This document shows, one piece after another, positions 1,400 through 12,472 of a DNA stretch of 64,000 bases. The notes under the pieces were generated by a model that was not told the DNA's origin, did not search any database, and saw nothing but the letters and a program-made list of their open reading frames with translations. Every line of letters begins with the position of its first letter. Position 1 is the first letter of the stretch. The stretch lies in the NCBI GenBank assembly GCA_963845755.1, contig CAWJTV010000011.1, positions 576,001 through 640,000 on the forward strand, in the 5' to 3' direction. Position numbers and translations under genes: made by a program. The stretch is from an uncultured Planctomycetota bacterium. Lineage in GTDB: Bacteria; Planctomycetota; Planctomycetia; Isosphaerales; Isosphaeraceae.

Positions 1400-4300
1400 A
1401 TGACCATGAAGACCAACGAACATCCTCGAACAGGATCGAGCCGGGAGCCCGTCGTTCGCCGACCGGACTGGGTCGTCCTGATCGCCGCGATGTCTGCCCT
1501 GATCGCTCCGTCGCGCGCCACGGCGGACGACGAGGCTTTCATCATCACGCCGCCCGGCTTCACCCAACCGGGCCAGGCGAAGACAGCGATAGGTGAGAAG
1601 ACCGCCCGGCTCCGGATCACCGTCCGCGACCGCGCCACCGGCCGGCCGACACCCTGCCGGCTCAACGTCGTCGGGCCTGATGGCAACTTCTACCAGCCTG
1701 CGCCCGGTCCGCTCTCGCCCTACAGCCTGACCGGCCAGTGGCCCAGGACCGGCAAGGGGAACCGCGAGGGCAAGGCGCCGATCCGCTACCTCGGCCGGTT
1801 CTTCTACACGAGCGGAGCAATCGAGGTGGCCGTCCCCGCCGGGACCATGCGTATCGAAGTTTGGAAGGGGTTCGAGTATCGGCCCGTGGCAAAGACCATC
1901 GAGGCGGCCATCGGCCAGACAATCCCGGTTGACCTCGCGATCGATCGCACGGCTGCGATGGCACCGAGCGGGTATCACTCGGGCGACCTGCATCTGCACT
2001 TCCCCCGCAAGACCGAGGCCGACGACCGGGTCATCCTCGACCTGCTGGAAGCCGAGGACATCCAATTCGGTTCGATCCTCGCTTACAACGAACCGGCCGG
2101 ACCGTACAACGGCGTGATGGAAGCCATGGACGCGCCCCAGCTCCGCGGGTTGGGGAAAGCCTCGGTCGTCCGTCGCGGCGAAATCGCAATCGCATCGGGA
2201 CAAGAATATCGAAGCTCGACTTATGGTCATCTCAACCTATTCTGGCGCGATGACCTCGTGCTGAAGAGCCAGCAGGTGGATGCCAACAACTGGCCCCTGT
2301 ATGGCATCCTCGGCCGGGAAACCCGGCAGCACGGCGGCTTCGCCATCCACGCGCACGGCGGTTATGCCCAGGCGATCTATGCCGACTTCGTCCAGAAGGA
2401 CGTCAACGCCGTGGAATTGCTCCAGTTCGGCGTCTATCGCGGGATCGAGCTGACGGACTGGTACCGGATCCTCAACATCGGTTATCGATTTCCGTGCGTC
2501 GGCGCGAGCGACTACCCGGCCTGTCGCTACCTGGCCGATTGCCGGACATACGTCGATCTCGGAGCGAAATTCCTCCCCCCCTTACGGAGGAGGGGCCAGG
2601 GGGGATTGAACCCGCCGGAGCCTTCGACGCCGAGCGCCTCTGATCGGCCGACCCGAACAGTACCCCCCCATACCCCCCCTTCGCAAGGAGGGAGAAAAGG
2701 CGCGGGCGGCCGCGAATCACGGCGTGGCCGCAGACAACGCGTTCGCCGCCTGGCTCAAGGCCGCTGTCGAGGGCCGCAGCTTCGTCACCACGGGTCCGCT
2801 GCTGTTGCTCGAGGTGGATGGCGAACGCCCCGGCGGCATCCTCCGCAAGACCGGACCGGGGCCGCATCGCATGAAGGTGAATGTGCGCGCGGTGTGCGAG
2901 GTCGCGCCGATCCAGACCGTGCAGATCATCGTCAATGGCAAGGTCGTGCACGAGCAGGCCGTGCCGGCGGAGCAGGGCAGGGGGGTCTGGATCGACGTCG
3001 AGCAAACCCTCGACCTGAATCGCTCGTCGTGGATCGCGGCGCGGGCGTTCTCGAAGGCCCCCTCCGGGGCGCCCGACTCCGAGGCTCATACCAACCCGGT
3101 GTACGTCACCTTCGACGACAAGGCCCCCTACGACCAGGATTCGCTCGATCACCTGGTGACGCGGATCGACGAGCAGATCGCCGTGCACCGAAAGCGACGG
3201 TTTGATGAGAAGGCCCGCGTGCTCGATTATTTCCAGAAGTCGCGGGACATCCTGCTGAGGATTCGACGGAATGGCGGACTGCCGGCCGGAGGCGTCCCCG
3301 ACGCCTGGATCGCGGATACCACCGAGTCAATCGACGCCAGCCGGCGGAAGATCGCCGACGATCAGCTCGAGCACTTCCTCCAGGCCGAGCCAGCCGTCAC
3401 ACCACAGGATGCTTTGAAGACGTTCGAGACGGTGGATCGATTCCGCATGGAGCTGGTCGCGGCAGAGCCGATCGTGCAGAGCCCCGTCGCCGCGGCCTTC
3501 GATGCCGACGGTCACCTCTACGTCGCCGAGATGCGGGACTATCCCTACAAGCCCAGGGCCGGTAAGACGCCGCTGGGCACGGTGCGACTGCTGCGCGACA
3601 CCGACGGCGACGGCCGGTTCGACCAGAGCACGGTCTTCGCCGACGGCCTGCTCTGGGCGGCCGGAATTGCGCCGTGGAAGGGGGGCGTCTTCGTCACGGC
3701 GCCGCCGGACATCTGGTACCTGAAAGACACCAACGGCGACTTCCGGGCCGATGTGCGGACGAAGGTCTACACGGGATTCGGCACGCAGAATCAGCAGGCG
3801 ATGGTGAACAACCTGGCCTGGGGCCTCGATCACGTCATCTACGGCGCGGCGTCGGGCAATGGCGGAATGATTCGAGTGGCGGACGATCCCAAAGCGCCGG
3901 GGGTCTCGGTCGAGCACAGCGACTTCCGATTCGACCCGGTGAGTGGGGCGTTCGAACTGGTCTCGGGCAACAACCAGTTCGGCAACACGTTCGATGACTG
4001 GGGGAACCGGTTCACGTGCAATGAGTCGCACCCGCTCTCGCAGCCGGTCTTACCGCGCCGGGAGCTGGCGCGGAACCCGTACCTCGCCGTGCCTTCGGCG
4101 GTCCGGGACATCGCCGGGGGCTCGGTGCCGATCTTCCGGATCAGCCCGGTCGAGCGCTGGCGGCAGATCCGTTCGAGTCGACGGATCGCCTATAGCGAGC
4201 GGCCCACGGGATCGGCGGGAGTGAGCCACCACGTCGTCAACGCCGGCGCAGGCGCGACCGTCTATCGCGGCGGCGCCTACCCGGCGGAGTTCTACGGAAA

Positions 4301-6363
4301 CGTGTTCGTCGGCGACGCCCAGAATAACCTGATCCATCGGAGGATTCTTGTTCCTGATGGGCCAACCTTCCAGGCGGTCCGCGGCCCGCGCGAGCAGGCC
4401 ACGGAGTTCGTCCGCTCGTCGGACAACTGGTTCCGGCCCGTGAACTTCGTGAACGCGCCGGATGGTACGCTCTACGTCCTCGACATGAGCCGTGCGGTCA
4501 TCGAGGCAATTCATATCCCGCTCGACGTGGTCAAGCATCTCGACCTGAAGCGTGGGCGCGATCAGGGCCGGATCTACCGGATTGCGCCGCCGGGGTTCCG
4601 CTATACACGTCCGCCGCGCCTGAGCCAGGCTACGACGATCGAGCTGGTGGCCGCGCTGGCGCGGCCTGACGCCTGGTACCGCGACACGGCGCATCGCCTG
4701 ATCTTCGAACGCCAGGACCCGGCCGCGATCGAGCCGTTACGGAAGCTGTTGAGTCCGGCCAGAGCCGCATTCCCACCGGCACAGGTCAATGCGCTCTGGT
4801 CGCTGGAAGGATTGAAAGCGCTCAGGGATGATGATCTTGCCGTGGTCTTATCAGACCCCGTGCCGGAAGTCCGCGCCCAGGCGGTCGTGCTGGCCGCCGC
4901 GCGGCTCGATCGATCGCGGGCCTTGCTCGAGAAGGTCATGGACCTGGCCATTGACGTCGATTCGCGCGTGCGGTTCCGCGTCGCGCTGGCACTCGGTGAA
5001 ACGAACCGACCCACGTGCCGTATGCCGCTCTGGCGCGGATCGCCCGCATCGGGATGCGGCGAACCGCTGGATCCGCACCGCCGTGCTCAGCTCGTGCGCC
5101 GCGACGGCCGATCGGCTGTTCGTGGACCTCTGGACGAACCAGGCCCCGCCCACACCGGACGTCGCCGAGTTGCTGAAGCCGCTGGTGGAGATCGTCGGCG
5201 CGCGGAACCGACCCGAGGAGATCGGCCGCGTGCTCGATGTGCTGGCGGGCTCACAGGTCGCCTCGGCACTTGCGATGCGAGACGGGCTGGTCCTGTCCTT
5301 GGCCCGAGGCGTGCGGCGTTCGGGCGGACGGATTCCGATCGATCCGAAGTCGGCGCGGCCTGGGGTTGCGATGGTCGCGCGCTCGTTCCAGCGTGCCCGG
5401 GCCTTGACCCACGACGCGCACACGCCCGAGGCGGCACTCCTGACCGCGATCGACATATTGAGCACGCTCGACCCGGACGGATCGCATGCGGATTTGCAGG
5501 AATGGCTCGCACCGCAGCAGCCGCTGTCGGTGCAGGTCGCCGTGGTGCGGGCCATGGCCGAGGGCCGCGCGGCGAACCTGCCCGACATCCTGCTGCCCCG
5601 CCTGCGCACCTTCGAGCCGACGGTCCGCGCGGCGGCCATCCGGACCCTCTTGAGCCGCACCGATTGGACCAGGGCGCTGCTCCGCGCCATCCAGCCCGGC
5701 GCCGCGGGCGGGATCAGCCCCAGCCTGATCGAGCCGTCCGACCGGACGCCGCTGGTGAAGCATCGCGACCCCGAGATCGCCCGGCTGGCCAGGCCGTGTT
5801 CGGCCAGTCCGCAACGGGCTCCCGCGCCCCGAGTCATCGCCGACTACGCCTCGATCCTGCGGACCAAGGGTGACCCCGGCCGCGGTGCCAAGGTGTTCGA
5901 CCGCGAATGCAAGACCTGTCACAAGGTCAGCGACCGCGGATTCGCGCTCGGCCCCGACCTGACCGGCTCACCGTCGAGCGATTCCGCCGCGCTGATGGCC
6001 AACATCCTCGACCCGAATGCCAGCGTCCAGCCTGCGTATCTTCAATACATGGTGATTGACCAGAACGGCCGGACGTATTCAGGCATCATCGCAAATGAGA
6101 CGGCGACCAGCCTGACCCTCCGCCGCGGCGACGGCGCCGAGGACACCATCCTCCGTGCGCAGGTCGCCGAGATGGCCAGCACCGGGCTGTCGCTGATGCC
6201 CGAGGGGATCGAGAAGGCAATCACCAAACCCGAGATGGCCGACCTGATCGCCTTCCTGCGAGCCTCGCATCGCGGCGGCCCGGGAGAAGGGCCGGACGCC
6301 GACGACCGCGCGCGTCCGCTCGATATCGGGACCTTGCCGGGGCTGATCGAGCCGGATCATTGA
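1400..6363 (+). CDS. Secreted fusion: CehA/McbA-like (PHP-type) metallohydrolase + PVC-type heme-binding CxxCH protein (glucose/sorbosone dehydrogenase-like propeller, HEAT repeats, cytochrome c); frameshifted
   Basis: Signal-like N-terminus; SGDLHLH, GQEYR..GHL, HAHGG, GASDYP and GRSFVTTGPLL motifs; then FRMELVAAEP..SPVAAAFD, DTDGDG, SSDNWFRPVNFVNAPDG; C-terminal CKTCH, GPDLTG, SLMPEG. Rebuilt from ORFs 1313..3205, 2724..5873 and 4828..6363, with shifts near 2700, 5010 and 5800. Confidence 0.85.
2570..2697. repeat. Inverted pair of CCCCCCTTACGxAGGGGGG-type REP-like elements inside the metallohydrolase gene
   Basis: ttcctcccccccttacggaggaggggccagggggga ... acccccccataccccccct tcgcaaggagggagaaa; same family as 44281-44370. 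Confidence 0.8.
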
Positions 6364-6403: not shown

Positions 6404-6609
6404 ATGCCGACCGTACTCCGAAGCGGGCCGTTCCGATTCTTCCCCTCGTCCCACGCTCCCGCGTGGGAATGCCGTCCCGGACGCTCCGCGTCCCCGTCGG
6501 CGCCGAAGACCGCGACGCAGAGCGTCGACGACGGCATCCCACGCAAGAGCGTGGGAACGAGGGGAGTTCGCCGTCTGACCGCGTGATTGAAGAAGACGGT
6601 CCTGAATTG
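6404..6609 (+). pseudogene. DUF4160-family toxin-antitoxin partner, disrupted by a palindromic element
   Basis: MPTVLRSGPFRFF matches the typical DUF4160 start; it breaks at 6442. A C-terminus-like remnant (RVIEE..PEL) follows the element. It lies directly upstream of DUF2442. Confidence 0.7.
6442..6564. mobile_element. REP/MITE-like palindromic element (CTCGT.CCCACGCTC..CGTGGGAA family)
   Basis: Terminal inverted arms cccctcgtcccacgctcccgcgtgggaatgccgtc / gacggcatcccacgcaagagcgtgggaacgagggg, with inner inverted pair gacgctccgcgtc / gacgcagagcgtc. Confidence 0.85.
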
Positions 6610-7023
6610 GGGGCTGATTCCGCGGTTGAAAGCCGGGTCGCCTTGGCCACCGGCGTGATGGTCAGCGAGGATACTCTCTCCGTGGAGCTAGCCGACGGCC
6701 GCACCATCGCCGCACCGCTGGCCTGGTATCCACGCCTGTCGCATGCCACAGCCGAGGAGCGGAATTCCTGGCGGCTAATCGCCAACGGCCAGGGAGTCCA
6801 CTGGCCAGCCCTCGATGAAGACATCAGCCTCGTCAATCTCCTCGCGGGTCAACCCTCGGCCGAAAGCCAGAGTTCGTTCAAGAAATGGCTCGCGAGCCGG
6901 GCCAAACCACGCCCCGGAACAAAGTGGCCGAGAGCCTACATCACGTCAGTGGTGGCTTCTCGAGGAATCCGATGCGGTAGATCCGAGGAACCGAACGCGG
7001 TGAGCACAGTTAGACGCCGTTAA
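6583..7023 (+). CDS. DUF2442 domain protein (partner of DUF4160); start uncertain
   Basis: DTLSVELADGRTIAAPLAWYPRLSHAT.EERNSWRLIANGQGVHWPALDEDIS..NLLAGQPSAES is the characteristic family signature. Confidence 0.85.
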   Translation: MIEEDGPELGADSAVESRVALATGVMVSEDTLSVELADGRTIAAPLAWYPRLSHATAEERNSWRLIANGQGVHWPALDEDISLVNLLAGQPSAESQSSFKKWLASRAKPRPGTKWPRAYITSVVASRGIRCGRSEEPNAVSTVRRR

Positions 7024-7617: not shown

Positions 7618-7958
7618 ATGGCCAGGATCAAATGCTTGAAGGACGAGTACGGGATCATCCGAGAGGCCGCGAAGATTCTACCTGATGATGCCTTGAAGGC
7701 TGCCTTCCCCGATGCGCTCGGCGAACTCGAGGACAATGATTGTTATGTGAAGAAGTCGTTCCCTCAGACCCGGCTGCACCGGATTACTGGGATCAAGCAG
7801 GCCATCTTTCGTGCCGACATCGACAGGATTTCGGGCTGGAGGTTGCACCTGCAGATGGGCAAGGATACTTGCATCCATCTCAAGGATATCATCGAGGGTC
7901 AGAAGCACGATGACGTGGTTCAGGTGATCAAGGCCAAGAAAGAGCCTCTCCAAGATAG
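7618..7958 (+). CDS. Hypothetical RelE/ParE-like protein of about 110 aa (as sequenced it reads in frame into the CHAT gene)
   Basis: MARIKCLKDEY...TRLHRITGIKQAIFRADIDRISGWRLHLQMGKDTCIHLKDIIEGQKHDDV; out-of-frame TAG at 7956-7958; looks lower in GC than the flanks. Confidence 0.55.
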
Positions 7959-7998
7959 AATATGCACTCAGCCTCCTCGTTTATCGGGCGAATCCCCC

Positions 7999-10900
7999 AT
8001 GAACGAACTCCGCGTCCTCTTCACCCCTGACAAAGACAAGGGCTATCTCGCCCACCTCGCCGATGCCGGCGACAACAAACTGGGCGTCGAAGTCCCGTTC
8101 ACACCCTTCCTGACCGAGGACGATTACGAGAACCTGTGCTGGTACCTGGAAGAGTACATGGACCTGCCCGACGGCGGCGCGGTCACCCGGGCGCGGGGCA
8201 TCGAAAAAGACCTCGACCGCTGGGGCCACACGCTGCACGACGCCCTGTTCGCCGCCAGGGAGAACCGCGACCTGCTGAAGAGCCTCCTCGCCGCTTCAGA
8301 GCCGCGCGAGCTGACCCTGGCCACCCAGGACCCGATGCTGCTGCGGCTCCCCTGGGAGCTGATGGCCGACGGCGCGGGCCGGCTGGCGCAACGGGTGTCC
8401 GTGCGCCGGCAGTTGGAAGAACCGGAGAAATCCGCGACGGTCGCGGCCAAGCTTCCCCTGCGGATCCACTACATCGTCAGCCGGCCGACCGATGCGGGCT
8501 TCATCGATCCCCGGTTCACCACCAAGGCACTCTTCGACGCGCTCGACCCGCTCGGGGGCAGCGTGCGGGTGGATTTCTGCCGCCCGCCCACCGTGGCGCG
8601 CATGGAGGAGCTGCTCCGCGACGGCCAGCATGCCAGCGACCCGTACGACCTCGTCCACTTCGACGGCCATGGCACGTTCTTGCCGCATTCGCAGATCGGC
8701 GCATTGTGTTTCGAGCAACCCGACGATGGTTCGGACGTCTCGAAGACCGACCTCGTCGAGGCCGAGCGGCTGGGCAACCTCCTGGCGAAGTATCGGGTTC
8801 GTCTCGTCGTGCTGGAGGCATGCCGTAGCGGCACTGTGGGGAAGTCCGCCGTCTTCCGTTCGGTCGCACCCAGGTTGATCAAGGCGGGCGTAAGCAGCGT
8901 GCTCTCGATGAGCCATGCCGTCCACGTCGAGGCTGCAAGACTGCTGCTCGACCGCTTCTACCGCGAACTGGTGCGCGGGACCACCATCGGCCATGCCGTG
9001 GCCCAGGCCCGCGGCGCCTCGACGTCCACCCCAGCCCGCTGGCTGGAATCCGGTCCGGGAGCCTTGACCATCACCCTGGCGGACTGGTTCCTGCCCCACC
9101 TCTACCAGCGCGGTGTGGATGATGCACTCGTCCCGCCCGATGCCGCCGAACAGCCGCCCGTGCGAGAGTTCGACATCTTCCTCAGCCACAATCACAACGA
9201 CTCGGACCGCGTCGAGGCGCTCGCCCGCTTACTTGTGGAAACGCACGGCCTGCGAGTCTGGCTCGACAAGTGGGAGTGCGGGCCTGGCGGACTAGAGCCG
9301 CAATGCGAGATCGGTATCAAGAACAGCCGTTTCACGGTTGTCGTCACCTCGCAGGACGCCCTTAAGTCGAGGTGGGTGCGGTGGGAAATCAAGAAGCACA
9401 ACCAGCTCAATCCCGATGGCGACCGCCTCATCCCGGTCAAATTTGAGCCGCTGAAACTTCCGCCCAAGTTGGATGGTCTGCTCTGGGTGGACTTCACCGA
9501 TCCCGCCCGTGACGTCGACAACGCCGCGATCCTCGCCCGGCTCATCCGCAGTGCCGACGCCGAGGACGCCCGTCGCCGTCGCAGGTTCCGCAGCCCGGCA
9601 CAGCGGCCCGAGGAACCCGGCCGATTCCCACCGCCGCCGCAATACAGTTTCCACGGCCGGGCGCGGGAGCTCCACATTTTGGAGCGACGATTCCGCACCG
9701 AGCGCGGCATCGTGCTGCATGCCATGGGCGGAATGGGCAAGACCGCGCTGGCCACCGAGGCAGCCCACTGGTGGACGCGCAGCGGCCTGTTCCACGATGG
9801 CGCCTGCTTCCTCAGCTTCGAGCAATTCGCCAGCGCCGACCGCGTGATGCAAGTCCTCGGCACCTACCTCGCCGGGCCGAAGTTCGAGCAGCTCCCCGCC
9901 GTCGAGCAGCGCCGCCGAGCCATCGAGCTGTTCCAGCAACACGCCGTGCTCATGGTCTGGGACAACTTCGAGAGCGCCCTGCCGGAGTTCGAAGACCCGG
10001 CCAGCCCCTACACCGACGACGAGCGCCGCCGCCTCGCCGAGCTGTTCCGCGACCTCACCACCGGCGAAGGCCAGGGCCGACTGCTTGTCACCTGCCGGCC
10101 CGGCGACACCGGCCTGCCCGGGGCCGGACGATACGAACTCCACGGCCTCGAACCCGCCGACAGCCTGTGGCTGCTGTCGCACATCCTGAAACGCGATGGC
10201 CTGACCTTCAACGATCCCCGGTTCGCCCGCGACCGGCTCGATCCCCTGCTGCGCGATCTGGCACACCATCCACACTCACTCGAGCTCGTTGGCCCGTACC
10301 TGCGCATCGCTCACGCCGGAGGCTATCCGGGCCGACCTCGGTAAGATCGTGGCGGAGGCCAAGCAGGATGCGCCGGAGGGCCGCAACCAATCGCTGTTCG
10401 CCTCCCTGGAGTTCTCCCGCCGCCATCTCAGCCCCGCCGCCCGCGCGGCGCTCCCCTGGCTCGGCCTGTTCCGCGGCGGGGTGTTTGAGATCAATCTGCT
10501 CGACGTGAGCCAGCTCGACCCGGCCGCCTGGGAATCCATCCGCCGGGAGCTGCAAGCCATCGCCCTGGTGCGGCCGGAGGACGACATCCAGATCACCGGC
10601 CGCCTTTTTCTGCGTTTCCACCCCACCCTCGCCTCCGCCGCGGCCGACGCCGCCCTGGCGCAGCAGCCCGAGACCCGCCGGCGCTTCATCGACGTCTATT
10701 ATGCCCTCAAGCGGGCGCTGGACCAGGCACTGAACGGCTCCCAATCGCGTACTGCGCTGGCAATCCTGGACCGCGAGGAGGCGAACTACCGCACCGCCGT
10801 CCACTGGGCCTTGGCCGATCGGCAATTCCGGGCCGCCGCGGCGCTGGGCGACACGTTTCGCGACTATCTGCAAATGTCCGGCCGCCTCCGCGAACGCGAT

Positions 10901-12164
10901 GCCTGGGTGCAGTGGCTGAAGGACGTAGTGACCCAGCAGGGCTTTACCCGGGAAGCCGCCACCTACGAACGGCAGCACGCCTACACGCGGTTTACCCAGG
11001 GCGATCCGCAGGGCGCGGTAGAGCAGCTCCAGGCCCTCATCGAGCGCCTCCGCCACACCACGGAGTTCGATCCCGCGTTTCAACTGGCCTTGGCGATTGG
11101 GGACTTGGGCAGGATCTTGTACCTCAGCGGTGCTCCGACCCAGGCGATCCGCATCCTGCGGGAATCCATCGGGCTCTGGGAGGCTCTGGTAGAGAAAACC
11201 GGTGGCCAGCCCTGGGAGACGCTGTTGTCCATGCCGGACCACGCCAAGGCCGCGGCCGAACTGGGGAACCTCTCCGCCACGATGGGCGATTTGGCCAATG
11301 CCCTGAGGGAAGCTGGTCAATACGACGAGGCCCTGGTCGTGGCGGAGAAGGTTCTGGGGATTCAACAAACTCTGGGCAACCAGCGCGAAGTCGCGACCGG
11401 CCACATCCAGTGCGCCCAGATCCTCATGGCGGCGGGCCGCTACGACGAGGCCGATGCCCGCTACGACCTGGCCCTGGCCGCCGCACGCCAGGCCGGGGAC
11501 AAGGAACAGGAGGGAACGACCCTCCAGCATCAGGGTTTCCTCGCCGACAACCGCAATCAACTCGGCCGCGCCATTCGACTTTACCAGCAGGCGCTCCGGC
11601 TCTTTCAGGAGGCGGGCGATCAGGGCTCGATGATGCGGACCTACAACCTCTTCGGCGAGGTCGAACGGAAGGCGGGCCGCCTGGCCGAGGCGCGGGCCTG
11701 GTACGAGAAGTCCCGCGAGCTGGCCGGGCAGTTGAAGGATCAGGTCGGCCTTGGCCAGGCCGCCCAGAACCTCGGCATCGTCTGTCAGATCGAAGGCGAT
11801 GCCGCCCGCGAGCGGGGCGACGAGCCGGCGGCCCGGCGGCACTACGAGGCCGCCCGCCAATCCGTGGAGGAAAGCTTGCGAATCAGGCAATCCCTCGGCA
11901 ACAAGCCCGATGAAGCCGGCTCGTTGAGTCAGCTCGCCCGCATCCACCTGCGCCTCGGCGACCTCGCCGCCGCCGCGCACCACGCCCACGCAGCCCGCCA
12001 GATCCGCGAATCCCTCGGCCTCCTGGATGTCTGGAGGAACTACGACACCCTCTCCGAGATCGCCCAGGCCCGCGGTGATGCAGCCGCCGCTAGCGAGTCG
12101 GCGCAGAACGCGCGATGCCGTGCTCGCAGAAGCCAAACGCCGCGCCCACGGTCTGGCCAAGTAG
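7999..12164 (+). CDS. NLR-like protein: CHAT caspase-like protease - TIR - STAND (NB-ARC-like) NTPase - TPR repeats; frameshifted
   Basis: CHAT: LLRLPWELM, VHFDGHG (His), VVLEAC (Cys). TIR about 9169-9550: FDIFLSHNHND..LRVWLDKW..SRWVRWEI..RLIPV. Walker A AMGGMGKT, Walker B LMVWDNFE, LLVTCR, LAHHPHSLEL; TPRs from about 10800. Shift near 10305; probable end ...RRAHGLAK* at TAG 12162-12164 (the ORF track reads on to 12361). Confidence 0.88.
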
Positions 12165-12224
12165 GGTGCTCTGCGAGCACCGAATCCCCGTGTCAAAACG
12201 ATTGGTGCTCACAGAGCACCCTAC
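12161..12224. repeat. GTAG-type REP doublet
   Basis: gtagggtgctctgcgagcacc ... ggtgctcacagagcaccctac; same family at 37696, 44627 and 63350. Confidence 0.85.
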
Positions 12225-12472
12225 AAACCGGCTTCGGCGATGGCTCGTTCCCCGCGTTCGCCGTCGGCCAACTCCCGCCGATCCCCCACGGCCTGCCGGC
12301 CGAGCTTCGCCAGTGGCTGGAGGAGTTGACGCAACCCATCCGAGACGCGCCGCGGGGATGAGGGCGCGAAGGCAAGCCGATTGTTGGGTGCGGGTCGCTT
12401 CACCGGCAAAATCGGCAATGATCGCAATAACGGCAAAGACGGCAGACCTTGCCACAATGAGGCTCGTCCGCT

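Follow-up and report, generated by a model that had tools for sequence, protein, structure and literature searches.

The window analysed here, a 64,000-nucleotide (nt) stretch of DNA from an uncultured Planctomycetota bacterium, carries on its + strand, at 7999-12361, a gene whose product joins a caspase-fold CHAT protease domain, a TIR domain, a STAND NTPase core and a C-terminal TPR array in one chain. With moderate confidence, the gene is read as a member of a widespread family of stand-alone STAND switches equipped with CHAT, TIR and TPR modules and acting as an NLR-like sensor in cell death or defence, the window copy being truncated in its C-terminal tail. The parts of the gene are listed below, where REP denotes a repetitive extragenic palindromic element and AF2 denotes AlphaFold2.

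7999-10305, + strand: first reading-frame piece, with an N-terminal subdomain, CHAT, TIR and the NTPase core as far as an HPLSLELVG-type motif (tblastn with the homolog P0003; Pfam)
8224-9033, + strand: CHAT protease domain, caspase-fold, separase/Csx29-like (PF12770, AF2 model, Foldseek)
8656-8673, + strand: HFDGHG, with the putative His of the CHAT dyad (by motif)
8812-8829, + strand: LEACRS, with the putative Cys of the CHAT dyad (by motif)
9175-9528, + strand: TIR domain (PF13676)
9178-9195, + strand: FLSH motif of the TIR domain
9373-9387, + strand: WVRWE, with the putative catalytic Glu of the TIR domain (aligned to AbTIR 8g83 and PdTIR 3h16)
9553-9588, + strand: acidic/poly-Arg linker ADAEDARRRRRF joining TIR to NTPase (kept in most TIR-bearing copies)
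9649-10110, + strand: STAND NTPase core (NACHT and AAA_16 matches, fold search)
9727-9744, + strand: Walker A, GGMGKT
9955-9972, + strand: Walker B, VWDNFE
10081-10101, + strand: LLVTCRP of the NTPase core
about 10306, + strand: first +1 insertion, frame 1 to frame 2 (DNA alignment; the tblastn pieces abut at 10305/10307)
10307-12108, + strand: second reading-frame piece, with helical and winged-helix domains and the TPR sensor array (tblastn with P0003 from residue 773; TPR_12)
10613-10630, + strand: RFHPTL motif, within the second reading-frame piece
about 12109, + strand: second +1 insertion, frame 2 to frame 3 (DNA alignment)
12110-12164, + strand: final homologous codons ..RDAVLAEAKRRAHGLAK, then TAG at 12162-12164, at the same hinge as the end of natural short forms
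12146-12258, no strand: REP doublet, with palindromic units at 12165-12181 and 12204-12220 (genome repeat counts)
12258-12361, + strand: remnant of the native C-terminal tail, ..GQLPPIPHGLPAELRQWLEELTQPIRDAPRG and stop, beyond the TAG and with a further 21-nt deletion (tblastn, DNA alignment)

In the assembly the gene is divided between two + strand open reading frames (ORFs), 7618-10344 in frame 1 and 10289-12361 in frame 2, and its start is placed at 7999 because intact homologs begin there (MNELRV...), in agreement with an earlier note made on this DNA from the letters alone. Within the product of the first ORF (P0001), Pfam identifies a CHAT domain at residues 203-472 (PF12770, 8e-25, 88.3 bits vs a cut-off of 24) and a TIR_2 domain at residues 520-637 (PF13676, 7.7e-23, 81.7 bits vs a cut-off of 28), followed at residues 678-831 by a weak NTPase signal that matches NACHT (1.1e-6, 29.0 bits, cut-off 26.7) and, under its cut-off of 32.6, AAA_16 (2.2e-6, 28.7 bits). 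The second ORF matches TPR_12 (1.3e-26) together with TPR_10 and MalT-type TPRs. An intact homolog of 1473 amino acids (aa), P0003, aligns by tblastn with its residues 1-772 on 7999-10305 at 84% identity and its residues 773-1473 on 10307-12358 at 74% identity, and neither homologous piece contains an in-frame stop. Pfam and the fold search thus bear out the proposal of the earlier note that CHAT, TIR, STAND NTPase and TPR modules are combined in one gene, and the HFDGHG, LEAC, WVRWE, Walker A and Walker B motifs to which it pointed are all located in the window. Within the CHAT motif, the His chosen is the one which we take to be catalytic.

The AF2 model of the CHAT and TIR half of the window protein, based on an alignment of 30 homologs, has a mean predicted local distance difference test score (pLDDT) of 79.9 and a predicted template modelling score (pTM) of 0.77. 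In Foldseek, the CHAT domain is best matched by Csx29/TPR-CHAT (Craspase), separase, SAVED-CHAT and DdvA, an anti-sigma factor, with E from 3e-9 to 1e-5; for the first three, E is 3e-9 to 1e-6 and the probability 1.00, and the sequence identity to Csx29 and SAVED-CHAT is only 10-19%. The TIR domain matches the TIRs of MyD88, SARM1 and SPARTA, best of all those of MyD88 filaments, and is closest by sequence to bacterial TIRs that include the AbTIR NAD+ hydrolase 8g83 and PdTIR 3h16; its WVRWE aligns with DWTNYE of AbTIR 8g83, the aligned Glu of which we take to be the catalytic residue. The other half, comprising the NOD (nucleotide-binding oligomerization domain), the TPRs and the tail, was modelled on L029, a locus with an intact copy (P0099) in the genome of an isolate. 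This model (pLDDT 85.1, pTM 0.62) shows a nucleotide-binding domain (NBD), a helical domain (HD), a winged-helix domain (WHD), a long TPR-like solenoid and a four-helix tail, and its top Foldseek match is the STAND-TPR protein PH0952 (6mfv, E 4e-12), followed by LGN-type TPRs and by Apaf-1 (3sfz, 3shf and 1z6t, E about 1e-6 to 3e-7). A sequence-profile search of the PDB returned only TPR and TIR relatives, and none for CHAT or NOD.

The class of the NTPase can be narrowed from its profile scores. The NACHT model (PF05729) reaches 29.0 bits on the window piece, and 25.0 and 26.4 bits in intact homologs, under the cut-off of 26.7, while the best NCBIfam match is FxSxx_TPR (NF040586), which scores 66.6 bits against a cut-off of 300 over the region from FPPPPxYxFxGR to Walker A; the NCBIfam scan gave no family-level match. 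Because NACHT lies near or below its cut-off and the best NCBIfam entry is the FxSxx AP-ATPase, the domain looks like a STAND NTPase of the AP-ATPase/PH0952 type rather than clearly a NACHT. The earlier note had advised a PADLOC scan, which at E<=0.01 recovered the TIR and CHAT at the level of domains only (ThsB-type TIR, SAVED_CHAT, PDC-S66 over the TIR, and TPR), with no full-length model covering the protein. PADLOC includes Avs models; membership in Avs was considered and set aside, as the scan gave no Avs or other STAND defence model.

Two single-base insertions interrupt the frame, where the earlier note had counted only one frameshift. At about 10306 the window reads gcgcaTCGctc where L009, a contig of an uncultured Planctomycetota, and the same-genus genome G001 read gcgcaCC-ctc, and at about 12109 it reads cagaaCgcgcg where four relatives read cagaa-gcgcg; neither insertion sits in a homopolymer. 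Long and essential genes of the assembly (genome G000) carry approximately one frame break per 2-4 kb: rpoB lies in two frames (C34:81189-83015 and C34:79366-81186), rpoC has two frame changes (C34:567489-571586), and the uvrA-like copies on C1, C33 and C36 are all in 2-4 pieces, that is, with 1-3 splits each. In the window itself, the DUF7133-HEAT/cytochrome c gene at 2724-6363 is an overlapping same-strand ORF pair that is seemingly split likewise. Since rpoB, rpoC and uvrA are broken every 2-4 kb, two single-base insertions in 4.4 kb amount to expected noise, and both are probably assembly errors. Pseudogene calls are accordingly unsafe in this genome, where assembly noise also breaks rpoB and rpoC, and the advice of the earlier note to polish the frameshift was apt for the same reason.

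The lesion at the 3' end of the gene is of another kind. After the second insertion, frame 3 reads ..RDAVLAEAKRRAHGLAK and ends at a TAG inside the REP doublet, so that the end of the gene proposed previously, 12164, does coincide with a stop codon, but one within the doublet, with a remnant of the native tail extending to 12361. The genome, of 14.3 Mb, holds 131 occurrences of the REP core 11-mer GTAGGGTGCTC, where fewer than 10 would be expected by chance on both strands (the authors' estimate, made without a shuffle control), and the REP unit gives 148 blastn-short high-scoring segment pairs (HSPs) in the genome, frequently as pairs about 45 nt apart. REP-like units with the core GTAGGGTGCTC...GAGCACCCTAC are present in more than 100 copies across the genome. 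At 12146-12258 the doublet stands in place of tail-coding sequence that measures 175 nt in the syntenic L009 and 158 nt in the same-genus G001, and the native tail can be recognised downstream as far as the native stop at 12361, minus a further 21 nt. The REP doublet is thus a real lesion that removes most of the C-terminal tail, and since G001 keeps the tail, its loss is a recent event confined to this genome.

In most family members the tail is an optional element of approximately 85 aa with four helices. Among the 101 homologs of at least 1300 aa listed by the homology search described below, eight are natural short forms of 1389-1394 aa that end just past ..RRAGGG, a hinge that matches the position of the stop in the window; seven of these were sorted as short by pattern and one (P0044) by eye, 82 have the full tail, and 12 fall outside the tail patterns (P0044, several long forms and fragments). 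The short forms at L013, L018 and L047 retain every active-site residue and show no remnant of the tail, and four of the five tandem copies at L048 lack the tail. If both extra bases are disregarded, the window protein is about 1386 aa long, and since this length matches that of the natural short forms, the window copy may well be functional, judging from its sequence. At L013 and L018, CCCTCTCCC...GGGAGAGGG-type palindromes directly follow the short-form genes in the first 120 nt past the stop, and the tail may have been lost beside REP-like elements on more than one occasion.

The family to which the gene belongs is large. A homology search found 826 proteins at E<=0.001 among 8000 candidates scored. 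The best 120 of the 826, which were listed, contain both CHAT and TIR_2 in every case; most have a length of about 1475 aa, and they are 67-84% identical to the query part. Their sources name them no more specifically than 'CHAT domain-containing protein', 'TIR domain-containing protein' or 'tetratricopeptide repeat protein'. Family members from different phyla usually share 70-85% identity. When 185,579 species were scanned, each through one genome, 363 matches to the pattern were obtained; a relative is encoded by 313 of these, and 76 distinct loci were retained. Their hosts, taken from record titles, are Acidobacteriota (Thermoanaerobaculia, Holophagales, Blastocatellia), Planctomycetota, Verrucomicrobiota, Pseudomonadota (Accumulibacter, Burkholderiales, Pseudaquabacterium terrae S2, Chromatiaceae, Competibacteraceae), Thermodesulfobacteriota, Myxococcota and Chloroflexota, with a few likely binning oddities. 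Mean pairwise identity in an alignment of 42 sequences is 0.78 for CHAT, 0.72 for TIR, 0.79 for the NBD, 0.78 for the HD-WHD, 0.66 for the TPRs and 0.62 for the tail. The CHAT His and Cys are each kept in 75/75 copies, the TIR Glu in 52/53 (the sole exception, L009, has Gln), the Walker A Lys in 83/83 and the Walker B Asp in 81/81. This conservation of the active sites is consistent with two effectors that are apparently active, as the earlier note had supposed.

Within its own family of bacteria the gene is rare, being present in one of 18 other genomes (the same-genus G001) and not found in 17 other genera, among 30 relatives searched, several with incomplete genomes. In a tree of the CHAT and NOD regions, which mixes phyla, the window copy and L009 group together (support 99) within a clade dominated by Acidobacteriota. 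Its patchy occurrence in its own family and its nesting among Acidobacteriota suggest that the gene was acquired horizontally. Nearly identical gene fragments at L022 and L024 (branches of 0.007 and 0.011) lie on contigs of about 2.9 kb binned as Actinomycetota and Gemmatimonadota, and for this pair an artefact of binning is more probable than a recent transfer. The window genome also encodes a distant CHAT-NTPase paralog (C1:135572-137727; 29-35% identity, with no match across the TIR region), which adjoins a split uvrA-like gene.

The TIR domain is an optional module of this scaffold. The earlier note had advised a survey of homologs with and without the TIR. Hidden Markov models (HMMs) of five regions, run over the + strand of the loci, identified 83 gene copies, 79 of them assessable. 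The TIR lies between CHAT and NOD in 51/79 copies, with a gap of about 475 nt, and is absent from a gap of 50-150 nt in the other 28 (22 loci), which have the same CHAT-NOD-TPR body and an intact dyad. On a FastTree phylogeny of CHAT and NOD (70 rows, unrooted, after 13 rows with <80% coverage of either part had been dropped), the TIR state changes at least three times: at a deep split, in a TIR-less Byssovorax, and in TIR-less L048 copies inside a TIR-bearing clade. Gain and loss are indistinguishable at the deep split because no root was inferred, while L048 points to a clean secondary loss, since its copies keep both flanking linkers. This Holophagales contig encodes five tandem TIR-less CHAT-STAND-TPR paralogs (L048:2453-21617), just downstream of a separate protein with CHAT and TIR_2 (L048:36-2030), and the TPRs of the paralogs are 0.59-0.66 identical, compared with 0.75-0.87 for CHAT and NOD. 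In a Rhodospirillaceae metagenome-assembled genome (L072:645-5096) the TIR comes first in a single ORF, with TIR_2 at residues 26-146, CHAT at 261-503 and then an NTPase with weak AAA_16, NB-ARC and nSTAND6 matches. Because the TIR has joined the scaffold repeatedly and in differing positions, CHAT appears as the constant effector and TIR as the add-on.

Following the TIR, most TIR-bearing copies have a conserved linker, ADAEDARRRR(G/R)F, which consists of an acidic-x-x-Arg motif and then poly-Arg. It resembles an ExxR motif, the separase-type cleavage consensus. The linker is missing from early-branching TIR-bearing copies and from most TIR-less copies; owing to its absence in early-branching members, its role as a possible cleavage site, and autocleavage there, stay speculation.

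Upstream of the gene lie small genes of a different character.

7618-7998, + strand: RelE/ParE-like small ORF, in frame with the CHAT gene and separate from the family protein (ESM Atlas features)
6404-6900, + strand: DUF4160-like start (MPTVLRSGPFRFF), broken by a repeat of about 130 nt, then a DUF2442 gene (ORF translations)
6433-6565, no strand: palindromic repeat of about 130 nt in the DUF4160-like start, translating as ..DGIPRKSVGTRG.. (>70 blastn HSPs across genome contigs)

The ORF at 7618-7998 has 127 codons and no stop before the CHAT gene, and the source gene call P0002 (902 aa) fuses it to the latter; the missing stop may be another assembly error. Its nearest ESM Atlas clusters are of 111-125 aa (scores 0.96-0.98), one of them auto-named, with the end of the name cut off, 'putative cytotoxic translational repressor of toxin-antitoxin stabilit...', and it has no Pfam or NCBIfam match. 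The DUF2442 gene was identified by a match of 2.6e-19, and the start before it resembles the N-terminus of the DUF4160 family. The segment 6873-7943, which includes most of the RelE-like ORF, is common to the window and G001 and missing in L009 (the G001 comparison stretch did not reach the DUF4160/DUF2442 part), and the upstream toxin-antitoxin-like genes are lineage-specific. Synteny between the window and L009 comprises the end of the cytochrome c gene, the CHAT-TIR gene, a methyltransferase, a small ORF and a phasin gene. When the 3323 flank ORFs of 65 loci were clustered all against all, no conserved partner gene emerged, the biggest flank cluster occurring in 6/65 loci, and a neighbour of about 230 aa recurs in four distant loci only. 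At E<=1e-8, PADLOC models match 17/240 of the two nearest ORFs on each side (13/65 loci), 7/51 control ORFs of the window away from the locus and 8/99 control ORFs 7-10 kb off in the same loci; these controls are imperfect, since the matches are at the HMM level rather than system calls and generic kinases and methyltransferases score in both sets. Convincing defence neighbours are MADS (L027, L046), a type I restriction-modification (R-M) system (L044), MzaA (L026) and a DpdE/ZorD-like helicase (L067).

From this architecture, and from comparison with what is established for Avs, bNACHT, Apaf-1 and plant TNL proteins, a mechanism can be proposed for the favoured reading of the family as a stand-alone NLR-like switch, for which a protease and an NAD+ hydrolase as outputs and a function in cell death or defence are the most likely. 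The TPR array would bind a ligand and autoinhibition would be released, whereupon the NTPase domain would swap its nucleotide and the protein would form an oligomer. Crowding in this oligomer would switch on the N-terminal modules, so that CHAT would cut proteins of the cell or invader and TIR would cleave NAD+, with growth arrest or cell death as the outcome, whether as abortive infection or as another conflict response. The two outputs are more likely to be parallel than strictly serial, since TIR-less members keep the protease and the switch. Several points weigh against this reading. Beyond the domain assignments, everything in it is inferred. For an arms-race receptor, the sensor shows unusual conservation (TPR 0.66 vs CHAT 0.78), and the syntenic relative L009 (TIR at L009:11159-11563) has Gln in place of the TIR Glu, through either a real change or an erroneous base. 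The tail has invariant residues in long forms, and its loss here may matter. For the indels, a search of sequencing runs found one soil-metagenome run, with 8% of words, and no RNA run. A defence-island context is unsupported, with PADLOC matches in 17/240 neighbours vs 15/150 controls; these counts, together with lineage-specific toxin-antitoxin-like genes that are partly absent at L009, also speak against the suggestion of the earlier note that toxin-antitoxin neighbours mark a defence locus.

Several other explanations were weighed. One is that the window copy is a dead pseudogene, its frameshifts real and the gene decaying, as might be supposed from four separate lesions within 4.4 kb, from indels outside homopolymers, from the loss of invariant tail residues and from other repeat insertions in the region, such as that in the DUF4160 remnant. 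An early multi-lesion version of this explanation was dropped in view of the noisy rpoB, rpoC and uvrA and of the natural short forms, and decay is considered rather unlikely: a break about once per 2-4 kb in those three genes makes two breaks noise, every catalytic motif is intact, the pieces are 84% and 74% identical to intact homologs with no in-frame stops within them, and tail-less forms occur naturally. An explanation that bears on the purpose of the whole family is that it is not anti-phage and instead acts as a regulated protease switch in the stress responses, development or kin interactions of large-genome bacteria, comparable to CHAT proteins of the HetF or separase type. The lack of enrichment of defence models among neighbours would fit such a role, as would the housekeeping-like flanks in the window and L009 (DUF7133-cytochrome c, methyltransferase, phasin), the high conservation, sensor included, and hosts that are mostly Acidobacteriota, Planctomycetota, Verrucomicrobiota, Myxococcota and Chloroflexota. 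Against it stand the patchiness of the gene in its own family (1/18 other genomes), the mixing of phyla on the tree, tandem paralog arrays with diverging TPRs and the loci that adjoin MADS, type I R-M, Mza or DpdE/ZorD-like genes; the pairing of TIR and protease is moreover a typical conflict-effector set according to the part of PMC8195603 that was consulted. A role of this sort is thus judged unlikely.

The remaining alternatives concern how the two effectors would work together. In one, TIR and CHAT would act in series, a NAD+-derived signal made by the TIR licensing the CHAT of the same oligomer, in a fused version of type IV Thoeris logic. Precedent exists in type IV Thoeris, where a TIR product activates a caspase-like protease, as stated in the consulted part of that report (10.1101/2024.10.24.620036), and both the pTM of 0.77 of the two-domain model and the joining of the TIR to the CHAT-STAND scaffold in three configurations are compatible with such a relay. 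It is nonetheless improbable, given that 28/79 copies are TIR-less with an intact dyad, so that CHAT needs no TIR in cis, and that no ligand-binding domain such as SAVED was detected beside CHAT. Similarly doubtful is the more elaborate proposal of a 'two-output resistosome', in which one STAND-TPR receptor of a widely transferred and strongly conserved family would fire CHAT and TIR together, and the tail, lost repeatedly next to REP insertions, would be a regulatory latch. In this proposal the TIR would have been recruited independently at least twice (into the CHAT-NOD gap and N-terminal to CHAT), and it also occurs in trans beside TIR-less arrays, a pattern that would imply functional coupling of the two enzymes: either the TIR product would license or tune the protease in cis, or ADAEDAR-RRR would be the site of an ExxR-type autocleavage that frees CHAT-TIR. 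Lastly, the TIR might be non-catalytic and serve assembly only, like animal adaptor TIRs, leaving CHAT as the sole enzyme. MyD88 filament TIRs are indeed its best structural matches and L009 has Gln at the Glu position, but with the Glu kept in 52/53 copies and with the bacterial NADase-type TIRs AbTIR 8g83 and PdTIR 3h16 as the nearest sequences, this is very unlikely.

If the favoured account of a sensor-controlled CHAT-TIR switch is correct, its interest lies in the pairing of its outputs. As usually described, a bacterial NLR-like protein has one effector; here two stand under one STAND switch. In hundreds of members from at least 10 phyla a single chain unites a caspase-fold protease with a TIR, and in eukaryotes these are the two hallmark executioners in innate immunity and cell death. 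The TIR-less, TIR-first and tail-less variants are natural controls, and the intact isolate copy at L029 (P0099) makes it practical to test whether the outputs are parallel, redundant or sequential and what the TPR array recognises.

Proteins of this general kind have been described. STAND proteins with TIR and caspase effectors are treated in general terms in the consulted portion of a published account (PMC8195603), and in light of this the description of the locus in the earlier note as an undescribed system was overstated, the gene being one copy, shortened in its tail, of a family that is very common. The preprints of Dyrka et al. and Kibby et al. (10.1101/2022.07.19.500537) cover, in the parts consulted, bacterial STAND/NLR proteins that have CHAT or TIR at the N-terminus, and bacterial Apaf-1-like proteins bear caspase-like N-termini according to the section consulted of a further paper (PMC13581612); the terms CHAT, caspase and TIR do not occur in seven of its supplementary files that were searched. 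A full-text literature search found no paper on a tandem CHAT-TIR-STAND-TPR family, though supplementary tables of the preprints may list it.

Among known systems, Avs and bNACHT resemble the family in having an N-terminal effector, a central STAND NTPase and a C-terminal repeat sensor, and in being encoded, as far as the consulted text of the sources describes them, by a single gene without conserved partners (10.1101/2022.07.19.500537; PMC13581612). They differ in that the present proteins have two enzymatic effectors in tandem, match no STAND-type PADLOC model, possess an NTPase nearer to PH0952, Apaf-1 and the FxSxx AP-ATPase, and are known from sequence only. Type IV Thoeris likewise brings together a TIR and a caspase-fold protease in one immune module; in the excerpt of its description consulted it is a two-gene operon with a diffusible signal, whereas here the protease is of the CHAT type and both domains lie in one chain under a STAND-TPR switch (10.1101/2024.10.24.620036). 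Assignment of the family to type IV Thoeris was considered and rejected, as a single ORF holds both TIR and protease, fused with the STAND NTPase, and no partner gene is conserved.

The closest solved protease folds are those of Craspase TPR-CHAT (Csx29) and SAVED-CHAT, whose activity is sensor-gated, as here; their gate is a CRISPR effector or cyclic oligoadenylate, while in this family it is a fused STAND NTPase. The Apaf-1 apoptosome and bacterial Apaf-1-like fusions share with the family an AP-ATPase-like NOD and a caspase-fold output, but unlike Apaf-1 the present proteins have a TPR array and not a WD40 propeller, possess an additional TIR, and carry their protease as a fusion rather than recruiting it. 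The FxSxx-COOH protein (NF040586) combines TIR, AP-ATPase and TPR (PMC7159879), and as depicted in the consulted part of that paper it has an N-terminal TIR only, where CHAT is present here too; among the flank ORFs of the 65 loci there are no vWA-MoxR or peptide-processing FxSxx neighbours. The family is of the known STAND/NLR-like kind, and its new part is the tandem dual effector.

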